Assembly (NCBI GenBank): GCA_963748235.1
Contig: CAVVHT010000009.1
Span: 826,162 to 890,161 of the forward strand
Length of the DNA stretch: 64,000 nucleotides
Reading direction: 5' to 3'
Origin: an uncultured Chloroflexia bacterium
GTDB lineage: Bacteria > Chloroflexota > Limnocylindria > Limnocylindrales > CSP1-4
The position numbers and the translations under genes are program-made. Under the pieces are notes generated by a model that saw only the letters and a list, made by a program, of their open reading frames with translations, had not been told where the DNA came from and searched no databases. Shown here piece after piece: positions 6,007 to 47,306 of this stretch. The stretch's first letter is position 1, and each line of letters opens with the position of its first letter.

Positions 6007-6079
6007 CGCGGGCTGACCACGCGCAAAGTCGTGTGCGCAGGTGTGGCATTCGACTGCGCGCGCGCCTAGAGTGCCCGAC

Positions 6080-40748: not shown

Positions 40749-41341
40749 GCCGGGGCGTTCTGCCAGCCTGTCTCGGAAACGGCGTCGTGCCACGCCTCGG
40801 CCGCACCACGGCCGTTGTCGAGCAGCGCTGCGTAGCGGCCGATGAGCTCGGCGAACGCGCCGCCGTCCGCGTCGGGCATCTCGAGCACCGTCGCCTCTTC
40901 GGGCTGCGGCGTCGCTGCCCCCGGCTCGGCAACGACGATCAGCGCAGCGCCGTGGTACCTGGCCGCGGACGCCGCGACCTCGAGCGCCGGCTCGTCGAGA
41001 GGCTCGGCCACGACCAGCACCTGGCACTCGGCCAGGTAGCGCAGCCCGAGATCGATGTCGGCCGCGTCCAAGCGCGGCAATGGATCACCGTGGGCATCGC
41101 CCTGCTCCCCTTCGCCGGCCGTGCGCGGCGTGACACCGGCCGGATCTCGCAACAGTGCGGCGTGGCCGATCCCGGCGCGACCCAGCTCGATCGCAACGAC
41201 GTCTCCATCGGCGTCATCGCCCACGCTGCCGACCAGTGCGACGTGACCTCCTGCGGCTGCCGCAGCGACGGCGACGCGTCCTGCCGACCGGTCGAGCCGG
41301 TCACGCGCATCGAGCCCCGGCCGGCCGAGGACGACGATCAC
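40745..41341 (-). CDS. hypothetical protein with weak PfkB/ribokinase N-terminal-like region
   Basis: MIVVLGRPGLDARDRL...AGGHVALVGSVGDDADG resembles a sugar-kinase N-terminus but lacks the GG and DTxGAGD motifs. 198 aa. Confidence 0.4.
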   Translation of the reverse strand: MIVVLGRPGLDARDRLDRSAGRVAVAAAAAGGHVALVGSVGDDADGDVVAIELGRAGIGHAALLRDPAGVTPRTAGEGEQGDAHGDPLPRLDAADIDLGLRYLAECQVLVVAEPLDEPALEVAASAARYHGAALIVVAEPGAATPQPEEATVLEMPDADGGAFAELIGRYAALLDNGRGAAEAWHDAVSETGWQNAPA

Positions 41342-42888
41342 TCGGGCGACGCGTCCGCCGGCACGATCATCAGCTCGCCCAATCCGGCGGCCCGTAGCGG
41401 AGACTCGACGTGCTTTGCGTCGCCGATGATCACGATTGACATATCGGCCGGCCGGATGTGACGCACGGCGGCCTGCTGGACGTCGAGCGCGCTGACCTCG
41501 GAGATCTGCGGGCGATATCGATCGAGCTCGTCGTCGGGCAGATCGAAGACGATCAGGCCACCCAACGCCGACGCCACCTGGGCGGCACTCTCGAAGCGGA
41601 GCGGGAAGACGCCGACGAGGTAGTCGCGCGCGACAACCAGCTCATCCGCCTCGACCTCGGCCTCGACGAACGCCCGGACGATGCGCAGCGTTTCGAGCAC
41701 GGCGGGCACGGTAACGGCCGATTCGACCGCGGTGCGGATCACGAACGGCCCCGGCCGGCGGCGCATGTCGAACGATGAGCTGATGCCGTAGGTGTAACCC
41801 AGCTCCTCGCGAATCACGCGGTTGAGGCGCGAGTTGAAGGTGCCGCCGAGGATCGCGTTGAGCACCGACAGGGCGTGGAAGTCGGGCGTGCTTCGCGCCA
41901 CGCCGACGTGCCCGATGCGCACCTCCGACTGAGGCGCGCCGGGTCGGTCGACGAGCACCAGCCTGGGTTCGGTAGTCGCGATCTCCTCGGGGCGTGACTT
42001 GCCGCTCGCGCCGCTACCGGCGAGGCTGCCCAGATGGCGCTCGGCAAGCTCCTCGAGTGACCTGCCGCCCAGGTCGCCGGCGACGACGAGCGTCGCCGAG
42101 CTCGGGTCGATCATCGCCCGGTGGCGCGCCACCACAGCGTCGTGATCGAGACTGCGGATCGTCGACTGCACGCCGGCCAGCGGCCGGCGGTAGGGGGTGG
42201 CCGCGTCGTAGATGGTCTCCGGGAAGACACGCTCCGAGCGCCGGCGCGGATCCGACCATGCCTGGAGCAGGTCGTTCATCCGCTCGTCGCGCAGTCGCTC
42301 CACCTCGGCCTCGGGAAAGGCCGGCTCGGCGACCATCTCGGCCAGCAGACCGAGCGCGTCGCCAAACTTGGAGCGCGGCACCTCGACGCTCGCGCTGAGC
42401 GTCTCCCACGTCGCGTCGGCGTGAATCTCGGCACCGAGGCGCTCGGCCGATTCGATGAAGTCGTTCGCGTCGCGGCGGCGGGTGCCCTCGGTCATCGCCC
42501 GGCCGGTGAGAACGGTGATACCTGCCTGGTCCGCCGGTTCGGTCCACCCGCCGCCGGGCAGCAGCAGCTGGGCCGCGACGAGCGCCCGGCCGGCCACGTG
42601 GGCATTGACGACGGTCAGGCCGTTCGACAGCGTGAAGCGCTCGAAACGCGGGAAGTGGTACTCACGCGGCCGGCCCGGACCGGGCCGGATGTCAAGCACC
42701 GACAGGTCGGTGGGGTGGGTCGGAGCCTCCTCGTCGGCCGGCGGCGGCGCGATGATCGCCGCGGAGGCGGGTTCGTCGGCCAGCACGTCTGGCAACAGGC
42801 CGGCGGCGGCATTCTCGTCCGTATTGGTCGGCTCGGGGAGTTCCTGATCGGTGGCGAAGCCCTTCTCGGCCGGATCGTCGAGCGTCAC
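41338..42888 (-). CDS. M16-family peptidase, non-catalytic (HxxEH-less) subunit
   Basis: 516 aa with the insulinase fold pattern. No HxxEH motif. 4-bp overlaps with both neighbours. Confidence 0.75.
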   Translation of the reverse strand: MTLDDPAEKGFATDQELPEPTNTDENAAAGLLPDVLADEPASAAIIAPPPADEEAPTHPTDLSVLDIRPGPGRPREYHFPRFERFTLSNGLTVVNAHVAGRALVAAQLLLPGGGWTEPADQAGITVLTGRAMTEGTRRRDANDFIESAERLGAEIHADATWETLSASVEVPRSKFGDALGLLAEMVAEPAFPEAEVERLRDERMNDLLQAWSDPRRRSERVFPETIYDAATPYRRPLAGVQSTIRSLDHDAVVARHRAMIDPSSATLVVAGDLGGRSLEELAERHLGSLAGSGASGKSRPEEIATTEPRLVLVDRPGAPQSEVRIGHVGVARSTPDFHALSVLNAILGGTFNSRLNRVIREELGYTYGISSSFDMRRRPGPFVIRTAVESAVTVPAVLETLRIVRAFVEAEVEADELVVARDYLVGVFPLRFESAAQVASALGGLIVFDLPDDELDRYRPQISEVSALDVQQAAVRHIRPADMSIVIIGDAKHVESPLRAAGLGELMIVPADASPE

Positions 42889-44276
42889 GCCGCCTGCTCC
42901 TCGGGCTCGGTCGGAACGTAGGTCAACACGACGCGGTTGTCGGCGCGGAAAACGTCGCGCGCAACTGACTGGACCTCCTCGGCAGTCACTGACAGGTAAC
43001 GCCCGAGCTGCTCGTTGATCAACCCGGGACGATCGAACAACGCCGCGTACATCGACAGGCGATCGGCGACCTCCTCGACGCGGCCAAGGGCGCCCAGCTC
43101 GCTCGCTTCGATGAGAGCCCGGGCACGGATCAACTCGTCTTCTGTCACCCCTTCGTCGGCCATGCGCTGCAGCTCGTCGAGGTAGCCCTGCTCGGCGGTC
43201 TCGGCGTCGCTGTCGGGCCGTACGGTGATCCAGCCGCCGAAGAAGCTCGCACCACCGATGAGCGGCAAACCGAAGGCGGTCACGTCCTGGGCGATCTTCT
43301 GTTCACGGACGAGGCTGCGATAGAGCCTGCTGCCGCGGCCGCCGGCGAGGATCTGGCTGGCGACCTCGAGCGCGTCGAACTCGCGCGTGCCATACGGCGG
43401 GCAGCGGAAGCCAAAATGGACGCGGGTCAGCGGAACGTTGTCGGGCACAACCTCGCGCGCTTCGTGGCCGATGAGTGGCTCGACCTCCGGCAGCACGGGC
43501 TGGCGGATCTCCGGATTGGCCGGGATCGGCCCGAAATAGCGCTCTGCGGCCGCGTGCGCCTCTTCCTCGTCGACATCGCCCACGATCGAGAGCACCGCGT
43601 TGTTCGGCGCGTACCACGTCTTGAAGAAGGTGACCACGTCATCGACCGAGGCCGCGTTGAGATCCTCCATCGAGCCGATCGGCGTGTGGTGGTACGGGTG
43701 ATCCGCGGGGAAGACAGCAGCCATCAGCTTCTCGTAGAACGAGCCGTAGGGCCGGTTGTCGTAGCTCTGGCGCTTCTCGTTCTTGACCACGTCGCGCTGG
43801 TTGTCGAGATTTTCCTGGTCGAGCGCGTCGAGCAGGGTGGCCATCCGATCGGCCTCCAGCCACAGTGCGAGCTCGAGCTGATGCGACGGCAGCGTCTCGA
43901 AATAGTTGGTCCGGTCGAAGTACGTGGTGGCGTTGTTCACGCCGCCCGCGCTCTGGATCAGGCTGAAGTGCTCGGCCTTCGTCACGTGGCGCGAACCCTG
44001 GAACATGAAATGCTCGAACAGGTGGGCGAAGCCGGTCCGTCCCGGCTGCTCGTGACGCGAGCCGACCACGTACCAGATGTTGATCGCGACGACGGGCGCC
44101 AGGTGGTCCGGCGCCACGATCACGCGCAGGCCGTTTTCGAGGCGCCGTTCGCTGAACGGAATGATGGGCACGTCGCCGCCGCTGGCAGCGACCCCTGACT
44201 GCTGGGGCATCTGGGTCACCGCCCGATTGTAGGCATCAGCGCGCGTTGGCGGCCGGGCTGCTCCGGGACGCCCCAT
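42885..44276 (-). CDS. M16-family zinc peptidase, catalytic subunit
   Basis: Inverted zinc-binding motif GFAHLFEHFMFQG (HxxEH) and the downstream Glu region. Confidence 0.85.
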   Translation of the reverse strand: MGRPGAARPPTRADAYNRAVTQMPQQSGVAASGGDVPIIPFSERRLENGLRVIVAPDHLAPVVAINIWYVVGSRHEQPGRTGFAHLFEHFMFQGSRHVTKAEHFSLIQSAGGVNNATTYFDRTNYFETLPSHQLELALWLEADRMATLLDALDQENLDNQRDVVKNEKRQSYDNRPYGSFYEKLMAAVFPADHPYHHTPIGSMEDLNAASVDDVVTFFKTWYAPNNAVLSIVGDVDEEEAHAAAERYFGPIPANPEIRQPVLPEVEPLIGHEAREVVPDNVPLTRVHFGFRCPPYGTREFDALEVASQILAGGRGSRLYRSLVREQKIAQDVTAFGLPLIGGASFFGGWITVRPDSDAETAEQGYLDELQRMADEGVTEDELIRARALIEASELGALGRVEEVADRLSMYAALFDRPGLINEQLGRYLSVTAEEVQSVARDVFRADNRVVLTYVPTEPEEQAA

Positions 44277-44298
44277 CCACCGATCCGACTAACTATCC
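44273..44298. promoter_or_regulatory. left copy of a perfect 26-bp inverted repeat, overlapping the M16 start codon
   Basis: CCATCCACCGATCCGACTAACTATCC is the exact reverse complement of 44481..44506. Confidence 0.7.
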
Positions 44299-44480
44299 GT
44301 GCCGGTGCATATCGGTGCCAATTCACGGGGAGCTGGGGTTCTCTGAGATTTGGCGGGTTCGTACGACCGCCAGCTCGCCGAGCAATTTGCTGGCGGCCTT
44401 GCCCTGACCGACGGGCTCGCATGCCCAGCGGTCTGTCGCTGCCTCCATGCCGCGCCCTCGCAACGGCTAGTCAGCGTGCT

Positions 44481-44506
44481 GGATAGTTAGTCGGATCGGT
44501 GGATGG
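44481..44506. promoter_or_regulatory. right copy of the 26-bp inverted repeat, ending in an ATGG upstream of MFS gene 1; a degenerate direct copy follows
   Basis: GGATAGTTAGTCGGATCGGTGGATGG. A related direct repeat GATAGTTGGGTCGCATGG lies at 44512..44529. Confidence 0.7.
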
Positions 44507-44566
44507 CTGCCGATAGTTGGGTCGCATGGGCAAGCCGCTGCCTCAACGAGCGCTTACGCTGGGCGC

Positions 44567-45850
44567 GTGCTGCCGCGCGGCCAGCTGCTGGCGATCTCCG
44601 TCTACTGGTTCGGGATCAACATGCTGTGGGGCGGCTACGAGATCTTCGGCCAACAAAAGGTCGAGTCGCTGGTCGGCATTCCAACCCGTGGCACGACGAT
44701 GGGCCTGCTCGAGCTGGGCGCCGCACTGGTCGCGATTCTGGTCCAGCCGACGGTTGGATCGATCAGCGACTACCTGACCTCGCGCTGGGGCCGACGCAAG
44801 CCGTTCATCTTCGTCGGTGGGCTGCTCGACCTGGTGTTCATCATCGGCATTGCGACGTCGCAGTCGCTCCTGTCGCTGGCGGCCTTCCTGCTCCTGCTGT
44901 CGTTCAGCTCCAACTTCGCCCAGGGTCCGTTCCAGGGCTACGTGCCAGACCTCGTGCCGGAGCGACAGGTGAATGTCGCCAGCGCGTTGATCGGCCTGAT
45001 GCGGCTGATGGGCGTGATCGTCGGCGCCGCCCTGATCTCGACCGGTGCCTCGACCGGCGACTACGCCGTCCCGCTGGTGCTTATCGGCGTCATCGAGGCC
45101 GTACTGGCGCTCGTAACCGTCGCGACCGTTCGTGAGGGGCCGCAGGGTAGGCCGCGTGAGGGACGCTCGTGGACACGCATCGCGCTCGAGACGTGGGGCC
45201 TCGACGCCCTACGCGAGCGAAGCTTCGTGTTCATGACGCTCACCCGGCTTCTTTTCCTGATGGGCCCGGCAGTGTTCGTCAACCTGAGCCTGTTCTATGT
45301 CCGAGACTCGCTCGGTCAGAGCGGCGCCGCCCTGACCACTTGGCTGACACTCGGGACGGTGGCCCTTGCCGTCGGCACCATCGGTGGCACGGTCCCGTCC
45401 GCGTGGGTGGCGAGTCGAATCGGCCGCAAGCGGGTCGTCCTGCTGTCGGCCCTCGCCGCCGCGATCGGCATCCTGCTCGTCGCACGCGCCCAGGCGCCGG
45501 TCGAGGCCATCCCCGGACTCGTGCTGCTGGGCATCGGCTCGGGTGGCTACATAGCAATCGACTGGGCGCTGATGACCTCGACCATCCCGCGCGTCGCATC
45601 CGGTCGCTACATGGGCCTCGCCAACATCGCCAACTCGATCAGTGGGCCGCTGGCGCTGATCATCGGCGGCCAGATTCTCGATCGCGTCACTGCCGGCGCC
45701 GGCCTCGAAGCGGCACCGCGCGCGGCGATTCTGACCGGGCTCGTCTTCCTCGGTGCGGCGTGCTTGATGCTGATTCCCGTGCGGCCGCGCGTTGAGCCGC
45801 CTGGCGACATCCAGCTCGGCATCGAGCCGGCCGCACCGGCGGCGCCGTAG
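44567..45850 (+). CDS. MFS transporter (paralogue 1)
   Basis: 12 TM helices. GTG start. The start may instead be the ATG at 44503, which would require one more frameshift. Confidence 0.8.
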   Translation: MLPRGQLLAISVYWFGINMLWGGYEIFGQQKVESLVGIPTRGTTMGLLELGAALVAILVQPTVGSISDYLTSRWGRRKPFIFVGGLLDLVFIIGIATSQSLLSLAAFLLLLSFSSNFAQGPFQGYVPDLVPERQVNVASALIGLMRLMGVIVGAALISTGASTGDYAVPLVLIGVIEAVLALVTVATVREGPQGRPREGRSWTRIALETWGLDALRERSFVFMTLTRLLFLMGPAVFVNLSLFYVRDSLGQSGAALTTWLTLGTVALAVGTIGGTVPSAWVASRIGRKRVVLLSALAAAIGILLVARAQAPVEAIPGLVLLGIGSGGYIAIDWALMTSTIPRVASGRYMGLANIANSISGPLALIIGGQILDRVTAGAGLEAAPRAAILTGLVFLGAACLMLIPVRPRVEPPGDIQLGIEPAAPAAP

Positions 45851-45917
45851 AGACACGGCCTACACTCGGCCGATCGACAGCTTGAGCAGAGAAACCACCA
45901 GCGCCGCCGGCGATGCG

Positions 45918-47306
45918 GTGCTCGAGCCGACACTCGACCCGGGTGTCGCCGGCGTTCGCGAGCCGGTCGTCCACGCACTCGGCCGGCCCACGCGCGAGCT
46001 GCCGCTCAGCCAGCTGCTGACGCTCTCGATCTACTGGCTGGGCATCAACGCGATGTGGACCGGGCTACACGTCATCGTGCTGCCCAAGCGCATGGAGGCG
46101 CTCTTCGGACCAGCGTCGGCCGGCCTGGCGCTCGGCCTGATCACCGTCGCCGGCGTGATCACGGCAGTGCTCGTCCAGCCGACGGTCGGCGCCATCTCCG
46201 ACTACACCGTGTCGCGCTGGGGCAGGCGCAAGCCCTACATCGTCATCGGCAGCCTGCTCGACGTGGTCTTCCTGTGGGCGGTCGCCTCGGCCGAGACATA
46301 CGTGGCGATCGTCGTCGCGCTCGTCCTGCTGCAGTTCTCATCCAACTTCGCCCAGGGCCCGTTCCAGGGCTACGTCCCCGATCTCGTCCCGGCCAGGCAG
46401 GTTGGCCGTGCCAGCGCCCTGATGGGCATGATGATCATCTTCGGCGGCATGGCCGGCGTGGGCATTGCCGCGATCGGCTACCTGCAGCTCGAGCCGGCCA
46501 TGTCCGAGCCTACCGTTCGGTCGATCCTGTTCTGGCCGACCGTGGCGCTCGGCTTCGTCGAGGTAGCCACGATGGTCGTGCTCGCGTTCACCGTTCACGA
46601 GGGTCGCGCGGCTTCGCCGCGCGAAGGGAGGTCGTGGTGGCGCATCGGCCTGTCCGCGTGGGGCACCGATATCCTGCGCGAGCGCTCGTACGTGTGGCTG
46701 CTCGTCTCGCGCCTGTGCTACCTGGCGATCCCGGGCGTCATCACCGCATATGCGGTGTTCGTGCTCGAGCGCTCGTTCAATCTGCCGCCGTCGGTTGCCG
46801 CGCCGTTCCTGCTCGTTAACGGCTTGATCGTGGCCATCTCGACGGCATTGGCGACCATTCCCGCCGCGCGGCTGTCGGATCGCATCGGCCGCAAGAAGGT
46901 CATCTACGTCGCGTTCGCGCTGGCCGCCGTCGGAGTGGCAGGGCTCGCCCTGGCCCCGACGCTCGAGCTCGCGCTCCTGTCATTGATGCCGATCGGCTTT
47001 TCTGCGGGGGCGTTCCTGGTCGTCGACTGGGCGCTGCTGACGGACATCATCCCCAAGGCCAGCTCGGGCCGCTACATGGGCATCTCGAACGTGGCCACGG
47101 CATCGTCGGGCCCGGTCGGCTTGGCCCTCGCCGGCGTTGTGCTTTTCGTGGTTACGCGTGCAGGGCTGCCGACCCCGGACTCGCCCGATCTCGAGTCGAC
47201 CCTGCTCGGCGCGGCGCCTCGAGCGGCAATCGCGTCGATGTTGATCTTCGTTGCCATTGCGGCGTGGGCGTTGCGCAAGGTCGACGAGACGCGCCGCGAG
47301 GACTGA
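45918..47306 (+). CDS. MFS transporter (paralogue 2, tandem duplicate)
   Basis: Shares VGxISDYxxSRWGRRKPxIxxGxLLD and SSNFAQGPFQGYVPDLVPxRQV with paralogue 1. GTG start assumed at 45918. Confidence 0.75.
   Translation: MLEPTLDPGVAGVREPVVHALGRPTRELPLSQLLTLSIYWLGINAMWTGLHVIVLPKRMEALFGPASAGLALGLITVAGVITAVLVQPTVGAISDYTVSRWGRRKPYIVIGSLLDVVFLWAVASAETYVAIVVALVLLQFSSNFAQGPFQGYVPDLVPARQVGRASALMGMMIIFGGMAGVGIAAIGYLQLEPAMSEPTVRSILFWPTVALGFVEVATMVVLAFTVHEGRAASPREGRSWWRIGLSAWGTDILRERSYVWLLVSRLCYLAIPGVITAYAVFVLERSFNLPPSVAAPFLLVNGLIVAISTALATIPAARLSDRIGRKKVIYVAFALAAVGVAGLALAPTLELALLSLMPIGFSAGAFLVVDWALLTDIIPKASSGRYMGISNVATASSGPVGLALAGVVLFVVTRAGLPTPDSPDLESTLLGAAPRAAIASMLIFVAIAAWALRKVDETRRED

Follow-up and report, generated by a model that had tools for sequence, protein, structure and literature searches.

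Proteins of the XRE/Cro-C1 type such as SinR, ClgR, HipB, C.AhdI and P22 c2 bind their operators as dimers, the HipB operators having the form TATCC-N8-GGATA, and in phage lambda the OL and OR operators of CI bracket the cI region and interact by DNA looping. For the Limnocylindria, a class of Chloroflexota that is abundant in soil and fresh water and of which very few members have been cultured, no described regulon was found in the literature searched. The element considered here is a perfect 26-bp inverted repeat in 64,000 nucleotides of a Limnocylindrales contig (GenBank CAVVHT010000009.1, positions 826,162 to 890,161; this whole 64-kb stretch is called the window, and its coordinates are used throughout), situated between a pair of M16 peptidase genes on the minus strand and two tandem MFS transporter genes on the plus strand. 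The window was compared with its relatives by sequence analysis, which revealed that each arm of the repeat is a copy of a conserved module that also occurs beside a gene encoding an XRE-family helix-turn-helix (HTH) protein. The modules are probably the operators of this Limnocylindria-specific regulator, which at the present locus would co-control both divergent units.

The left arm (44273-44298; CCATCCACCGATCCGACTAACTATCC on the plus strand, GGATAGTTAGTCGGATCGGTGGATGG on the minus strand) points to the M16 operon and occupies approximately positions -54 to -79 relative to the putative M16 start site at 44219. The right arm (44481-44506, plus strand; GGATAGTTAGTCGGATCGGTGGATGG) points to the MFS genes and occupies approximately positions -86 to -61 relative to the GTG at 44567. 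The arms are 26 nt each, complementary at 26 of 26 positions, and separated by 182 nt. When up to three mismatches were allowed, the 26-mer matched only these two arms in the 64 kb and had no match in 100 dinucleotide-preserving shuffles; likewise, a weight-matrix scan of the window retrieved the two arms only, with a score of 45.7 for the left arm against a shuffle maximum of 16.7. The original prediction of a perfect 26-bp inverted repeat beyond chance was therefore borne out, as was its placement between the minus-strand M16 pair and the plus-strand MFS genes. A canonical half-site, CTAGTCA (44467-44473, plus strand), is located 7 nt upstream of the right arm and corresponds to the first half of an ancestral palindrome, AGTCA-N7-TGACT (class I context); none is present beside the left arm. 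The left arm is accompanied, 5 nt upstream on its inner side, by ATGCACC (44304-44310, minus strand; class II context), which differs at one position from the ATCCACC that precedes gene-distal arms by 5-6 nt in other genomes. Loose matches to AGTC-N5-9-GACT numbered four in the window, near the base-composition expectation (estimated at roughly 3), and the two that were checked (53814 and 53958) both fall inside the carB open reading frame (ORF).

The module, designated M (GGATAGTTAGTCGGATCGGTGGATRG), is present in two to six copies per metagenome-assembled genome (MAG) of Limnocylindria. An exact search of one-genome-per-species contigs with a 20-mer taken from M (GATAGTTAGTCGGATCGGTG) returned nine copies in four Chloroflexota/Limnocylindrales MAGs, six of which flank the same HTH gene (loci in other genomes are given L numbers below). 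A search for further copies had been proposed as a way to distinguish a mobile element at many unrelated loci from a unique regulatory site; the outcome was neither, as the module occupies a few loci, each of them conserved. The 20-mer had no match in a scan of metagenome DNA or in a viral scan, and a 17-mer matched one viral sequence (L045) in which the remainder of the motif is missing and which was taken as chance. Within M, the major allele has a frequency of 0.90 over 33 distinct instances, as against 0.45-0.48 in each adjoining 40 nt, and the flanks diverge directly outside gGATAGTTAGTCGGATCGGTGGAT(G/A)N. The ATG of the repeat is ATA in 12 of these 33 copies, and no conserved ORF follows it, the downstream frames being unrelated among copies or stopping within 5-14 codons.

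An older form of the module consists of AGTCA-N7-TGACT followed by TAATCGGAT-N4-GTGGATG, in which the extension, TA(A/G)TCGGAT-N3/4-GTGGAT(G/A), lies on one side of the 17-bp palindrome. Alignment of the two forms indicates that M comprises the second half-site plus the extension, and that the CTAGTCA located 7-9 nt upstream of many M copies represents the first half-site. Judging from this alignment, the second half-site in the clade of the window changed from TGACT to GGATA, giving rise to the 26-mer M with its architecture unchanged. In L008 (HTH protein 63% identical), three substitutions recur in each of the three copies (variant GGATGGCTAGTCGGATCGGCGGAT). Short tandem repeats composed of three copies of 10-20-nt units (GGGACAGCTAACC-like, CGCACGACCG and CCCCCAAGTC, among others) are situated directly beside modules, for example in L004 (1935-2000), L001 (about 6040-6075), L002 (about 170-230) and L003 (downstream of 3887), the units differing by genome.

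The association with the HTH gene is best seen in L004, where two inverted copies of M about 645 bp apart enclose a single ORF encoding the XRE-family protein. L005 and L002 adjoin each other on one contig, which shows this arrangement as well, and L003 and L006 carry the HTH gene beside their copy. Additional family members were obtained by exact-protein look-up and a metagenome scan. When mismatches were allowed, an outward-facing inverted pair around the gene was identified in L003, L004, L005 with L002, L008, L011-L013, L014, L016-L020 and L028; in L006, L015 and L030 the contig ends beside the HTH gene and a single arm is visible. In L021-L026 and L028, with HTH proteins 45-53% identical, each locus contains exactly two AGTCA-N7-TGACT palindromes, one on each side of the gene and each carrying the same outward extension, GGCTAATCGGATTgCGTGGATGA. 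L030, of the same identity group, has only the downstream palindrome with GGCTAATCGGATTgCGTGGATGA on its contig, and L009 has two palindromes upstream of the gene and none downstream. Altogether, the HTH-linked site was found in every genome examined, at more than 20 loci representing many lineages of Limnocylindria. The gene is syntenic, preceded by genes encoding a FAA-hydrolase and a creatininase and followed on the opposite strand by an amidohydrolase or acetyltransferase gene, and is therefore regarded as chromosomal and not mobile. No partner toxin or restriction-modification gene was found near it in the loci with visible neighbours.

Two further observations concern these loci. In L004 (2610-2690), the HTH ORF reads through the usual stop of the family, with TGG where relatives appear to stop after ...AGET, and ends 24 codons later at a TAG inside the downstream M copy. 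Additional AGTCA-N-GACT palindromes were observed in L008 (3343-3376) and L009 (4210-4226), upstream of an operon that encodes a CoA-transferase, an enoyl-CoA hydratase, a luciferase-like protein, a shikimate dehydrogenase, the FAA-hydrolase and the creatininase and that ends beside the HTH gene; the regulator may have this operon as its primary target.

The HTH family comprises 44 clusters of proteins of about 160 amino acids, is confined to this class (the sources name 'Candidatus Limnocylindria'), and is undescribed as a family, a literature search on regulators in Limnocylindria having returned nothing on it. The protein consists of a long N-terminal helix, an HTH_31 domain (Pfam E = 2.5e-9) and a C-terminal motif, GRLFPxGVCPHDHxCxWQP. 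It belongs to no curated family, all NCBIfam matches being far below the cut-off, and among solved structures no relative extends beyond the HTH domain, for which C.AhdI, SinR, ClgR, HipB and P22 c2 are the nearest structural matches. The structure model (pLDDT 72) combines the long N-terminal helix with a C-terminal helix, and these helices are only suggestive of a role in higher-order assembly.

When compared to the XRE/Cro-C1 repressors, the system shares an HTH_31/HTH_3 domain, an ancestral AGTCA-N7-TGACT palindrome of the dimer type, and sites that adjoin the gene of the regulator itself, a placement known from autoregulated XRE proteins. It differs from them in the additional N-terminal helix and the Cys/His-containing C-terminal motif of the protein, in the asymmetric extension, which is about 20 nt long and deeply conserved, and in the arrangement of the sites as outward-facing pairs flanking the gene. 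A HipB-like TATCC-N8/9-GGATA operator was considered for the class II arms and set aside, as it is absent from the class I arms. Regarding lambda CI, the likeness lies in a regulator gene placed between two inverted operator clusters a few hundred bp to a few kb apart, an arrangement that by analogy would invite cooperative looped binding. In contrast to lambda, the context of the HTH gene is chromosomal and syntenic, not that of a prophage, and the gene-less arm pairs show no consistent helical phasing (86-208 bp).

Pairs of modules are also found away from the HTH gene. In two species (L001 and L007), a pair occupies the intergenic region between argS and an MBL-hydrolase gene, with arms 127 and 60 nt apart, respectively, and with one arm carrying five mismatches that are identical in both loci. 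This degenerate arm and about 35 nt leading to the argS start are identical in L001 (6139-6201) and L007 (7629-7690), with HTH proteins that differ by 10%, and the whole argS leader appears to be under strong constraint. The closest relative of the window, a DASQLS MAG (L038), has an M pair in the same positions of its orthologous M16/MFS intergenic region, and there, too, the MFS-facing end is of class I. The same MAG also contains the HTH gene with exact M flanks (L004). Its M16/MFS arms have two and four mismatches and its inner spacer is 128 nt long and poorly alignable. At more distant M16/MFS loci, L039 has two AGTC-N8-GACT palindromes, both intergenic and the sole ones in 9.3 kb, and L040 has an intergenic inverted pair of TGAGTCGGTTnnGTGGATC. 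Sites are therefore conserved at orthologous regions both between the window and L038 and between L001 and L007.

Apart from about 12 nt adjoining the arms, there is no similarity among the segments enclosed in the window, in L001, in L007 and at the HTH loci; the idea that the 182 nt in the window represent an HTH cassette with its gene deleted was rejected for this reason. The centre-to-centre spacing of the arms in the gene-less pairs is 208 bp in the window (about 20 turns) and 154, 153 and 86 bp elsewhere. As the latter three are not integral, helical phasing was discarded and is not used as evidence. The overall picture is consistent with a small, evolving regulon and not with a repeat family.

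The position of the arms relative to the genes depends on where the latter start. The first M16 gene, encoding a pitrilysin-family peptidase (42885-44219, minus strand), starts at GTG 44219 or ATG 44210 and not at ATG 44276, which lies inside the left arm and opens an ORF in frame with M16. Its homologues are mostly 441 amino acids long and align from the Met at 44210, and the M16 protein of the closest relative (P0045, 98% identical in amino acids; MAG DASQLS01, GCA_035629915.1) is annotated from the equivalent Met. Moreover, the M16-side arm of this relative reads GGATAG instead of GGATGG and so contains no ATG. A -10-like box, TACAAT (44226-44231, minus strand), lies outside the repeat pair and 6 nt upstream of GTG 44219, the leader reading CTACAAT (44231-44226), CGGGCG and then GTG. 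This box is conserved as GATGCGTCACAATC-N5/6-GTGCCCCAG before the M16 start in every Limnocylindria M16 locus fetched, in the form TCACAAT-N6-GTGCCCCAG in the relatives, and we infer that it is the -10 element of the M16 core promoter, with a leaderless or near-leaderless start. The proposal that the repeat supplies the ribosome-binding site and start codon of the M16 gene was consequently not confirmed, since the homologues start 57-66 nt downstream of it, the relative has GGATAG, and the -10 box intervenes.

On the other side, the earliest possible start in the frame of the first MFS gene (44567-45850, plus strand) is GTG 44567, preceded at 6 nt by a putative -10-like element, TACGCT (44555-44560, plus strand), for which the closest relative has TAGGCT followed by 6 nt and GTG. 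The ATG at 44503 opens only an out-of-frame ORF rich in Arg and Ala, as anticipated in the original prediction, and the ATGs within the repeat are thus incidental. No recognisable -35 element was identified at either putative core promoter. More generally, a -10-like hexamer is located 6-7 nt before the start in M16 genes (TACAAT/CACAAT + 6 + GTG) and MFS genes (TACGCT/TAGGCT + 6 + GTG), at 44217-44231 (minus) and 44555-44569 (plus) in the window and just upstream of the M16 starts in L039-L044, and HTH genes have T[TC]NA[AC]T + 6-7 + ATG before their coding sequence. Because no Shine-Dalgarno sequence is apparent at these M16, MFS and HTH starts, the hexamers suggest that leaderless mRNAs are common in Limnocylindria.

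These observations are compatible with a mechanism in which an HTH dimer would bind the ancestral 17-bp AGTCA-N7-TGACT palindrome, a palindrome of this type being the usual target of such dimers. The outward pair around the regulator's own gene would serve autoregulation, possibly by looping, and the few further pairs would mark target regions. In the window, the pair would precede the M16 and MFS start sites by about 55-85 bp and lie outside the core promoters, and because it is placed upstream of both putative starts, one protein could co-control the two divergent units. This geometry would fit upstream activation as well as repression by bridging the two arms. The identity of the arms would need no recent duplication, because both equal the clade consensus, as do the copies flanking the HTH gene in the sister MAG (L004). 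A shared operator for the divergent operons was among the options of the original prediction, and the comparative evidence argues for it, with the XRE-family HTH protein as the candidate regulator.

Several points weigh against these operators and their proposed regulator. The link between regulator and site is one of co-location and co-conservation; the regulator gene was not found in the 64-kb window by tblastn, and its presence in this genome is predicted from the close relative. M in the clade of the window is not itself palindromic, a clear palindrome being present in distant lineages. At the M16/MFS region, the arms of L038 have diverged about as much as neutral flanks, so that constraint at this target may be weak or modest, or conversion may have refreshed the perfect arms of the window. 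Furthermore, no recognisable site is present at the M16 loci of L041/L042, L043 and L044, so the M16/MFS region is not targeted universally. A simple dimer operator would need neither the asymmetric extension of about 20 nt, which is conserved more deeply than the half-site, nor the strict outward orientation. Finally, one module of each HTH pair, and one at argS/MBL, faces the 3' end of a gene, where an operator would have no obvious job.

The asymmetry could be accounted for if each module were instead a regulated, outward-firing promoter, with the first half-site TAGTCA as -35 element, 17-18 nt, a -10 element TCGGAT, 6-7 nt, and +1 at the A of ATG/ATA. In such a promoter, the spacer would hold the second half-site, the operator would overlap the -35 element and the spacer, and the asymmetry would reflect promoter elements; in the window, the M16 and MFS units would have the arms as their promoters or second promoters. 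The distances are indeed constant in M-type and ancestral modules alike (17-18 nt from TAGTCA/AGTCAC to TCGGAT and 6-7 nt from TCGGAT to the invariant A) and the same geometry of -10, 6-7 nt and start recurs at the M16, MFS and HTH genes, but the second position of TCGGAT is not the A that is critical in a -10 element, and the class II arms, including the left arm of the window, lack the TAGTCA -35. Outward firing suits the window, with its genes on both sides, whereas at the HTH gene and at argS/MBL it would hit the 3' ends of convergent genes. Likewise, a sigma70-like TTGGCA-18-GATAGT overlaps the left arm, but its TTGGCA is not conserved in L001, L007 or L038. We consider a promoter function of the modules unlikely.

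An improbable alternative is that the pairs are relic terminal inverted repeats (TIRs) of an ancient element resembling an insertion sequence (IS), from which the small HTH protein survived. The gene-less pairs, with 60-182 bp inside, would then be derivatives similar to miniature inverted-repeat transposable elements (MITEs), now immobile and possibly functionless. The 26-bp terminal-looking inverted repeats, a TIR-gene-TIR version of about 700 bp and short gene-less versions at other loci do resemble MITEs and IS elements; in contrast to these, the copy number is low (two to six per MAG), the window pair has no target-site duplication (its left flank ends in ...GACGCC and its right flank begins with CTGCCG..., without direct repeat), the interiors of different pairs are unrelated, and no transposase domain was found in the 160-amino-acid protein. 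Conservation peaking at the outer end of the repeat, and arms that drift at a roughly neutral rate in the closest relative, would fit a relic, but the HTH locus is deeply syntenic, the same sites are occupied across species (L001/L007 and window/L038), and the scans revealed no viral association. In addition, M is 90% conserved among species that share only about 65% identity in their HTH proteins, which argues for present function. The roughly 235-bp MITE-like element offered as an option in the original prediction is not supported, for the same reasons, the terminal inverted repeats being there (26/26) and dispersed copies with a homologous interior not, with orthologous occupancy in the closest relative and no informative viral matches.

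A variant that we regard as more doubtful still is that the module pairs are domesticated TIRs of an ancient insertion sequence, whose end-binding HTH repressor was kept as a host transcription factor and whose MITE-like pairs seeded the M16/MFS and argS regions. If true, it would explain the outward orientation, the conserved asymmetric outer end and the pairing of arms, and it would represent a bacterial case of a transposon-derived regulator together with a transposon-derived network of binding sites.

Inversion of the 182-bp segment by a site-specific recombinase, toggling M16 versus MFS expression, is very unlikely. Perfect 26-bp inverted repeats that enclose a short intergenic segment are classically the mark of invertible promoters (fimS, hix sites, Bacteroides invertons), and recombination would keep the arms identical; however, the arms are imperfect in the closest relative and the putative core promoters lie outside the pair. 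A single orientation was seen in the assemblies, both for the inner segment, whose class I end faces the MFS genes in the window as well as in L038, and for the HTH gene relative to its neighbours in every locus where these are visible, which makes inversion unlikely. The genes within about 10 kb, the part of the window screened for this purpose, encode an HDAC/hydrolase, the two M16 peptidases, the two MFS transporters, an AAA_33 kinase, a GAF-PAS histidine kinase and carB, and no invertase or other recombinase domain was found among them. Least credible is a duplicated leader or translation-initiation module supplying a ribosome-binding site and ATG, an option of the original prediction, because although GGTGG-ATG-G terminates both window arms and the ATG of the left one shares the M16 frame, the triplet is ATA in the 12 of 33 copies mentioned above and in the M16-side arm of the closest relative, the ORFs from the ATG are short, non-homologous or out of frame, and the M16 homologues start at the downstream Met or Val.

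If the modules are operators of the XRE-family protein, they appear to be an ordinary kind of regulatory site, of the autoregulated XRE type, with an unusual site architecture. They provide a testable candidate regulator-operator pairing with a small candidate regulon composed of the regulator's own gene, the adjacent CoA-transferase/creatininase catabolic operon in some lineages, the M16 pair with the two MFS genes, and argS. They would also illustrate how an operator changes between lineages (TGACT to GGATA) under a constant architecture. Their use would be mainly in annotation, DAP-seq and synthetic biology in Limnocylindria, with no general principle altered.

Among the remaining features of the intergenic region, the inner spacer (44299-44480, 182 nt) is poorly conserved with respect to the closest relative, where large indels reduce it to 128 nt. 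Folding of the repeat region, proposed as a check alongside the original prediction, gave z = -6, a value explained simply by the 26-bp stem formed by the arms. The spacer contains an 8-bp GC-rich hairpin (44367-44374/44389-44396; CCGCCAGC / GCTGGCGG) with a loop of 14, which is probably without function, given that it lacks a T-run and does not occur in the closest relative. A scan of 43500-45500 against Rfam at a permissive threshold produced a chance miRNA match only and no known RNA family. The third degenerate copy described at 44512-44529 (plus strand; GATAGTTGGGTCGCATGG) is present as sequence, in the form of a weak partial match, but it is not a full site in the weight-matrix scan and is not conserved in the closest relative.

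In the wider region, the gene order carB, AAA_33 kinase, MFS, MFS, followed by the divergent M16, M16 and HDAC-hydrolase genes, recurs in relatives, and the M16/MFS neighbourhood appears to be an ordinary chromosomal region. The second M16 peptidase gene (41338-42888, minus strand) overlaps the first by 4 nt. The second MFS gene (45792-47306, plus strand) encodes a paralogue 41% identical to the first, and the two MFS ORFs as listed overlap by 59 nt (TTG 45792 versus stop 45850). The true start of the second MFS gene is probably later than TTG 45792, because homology to the first begins near residue 68 of the ORF.

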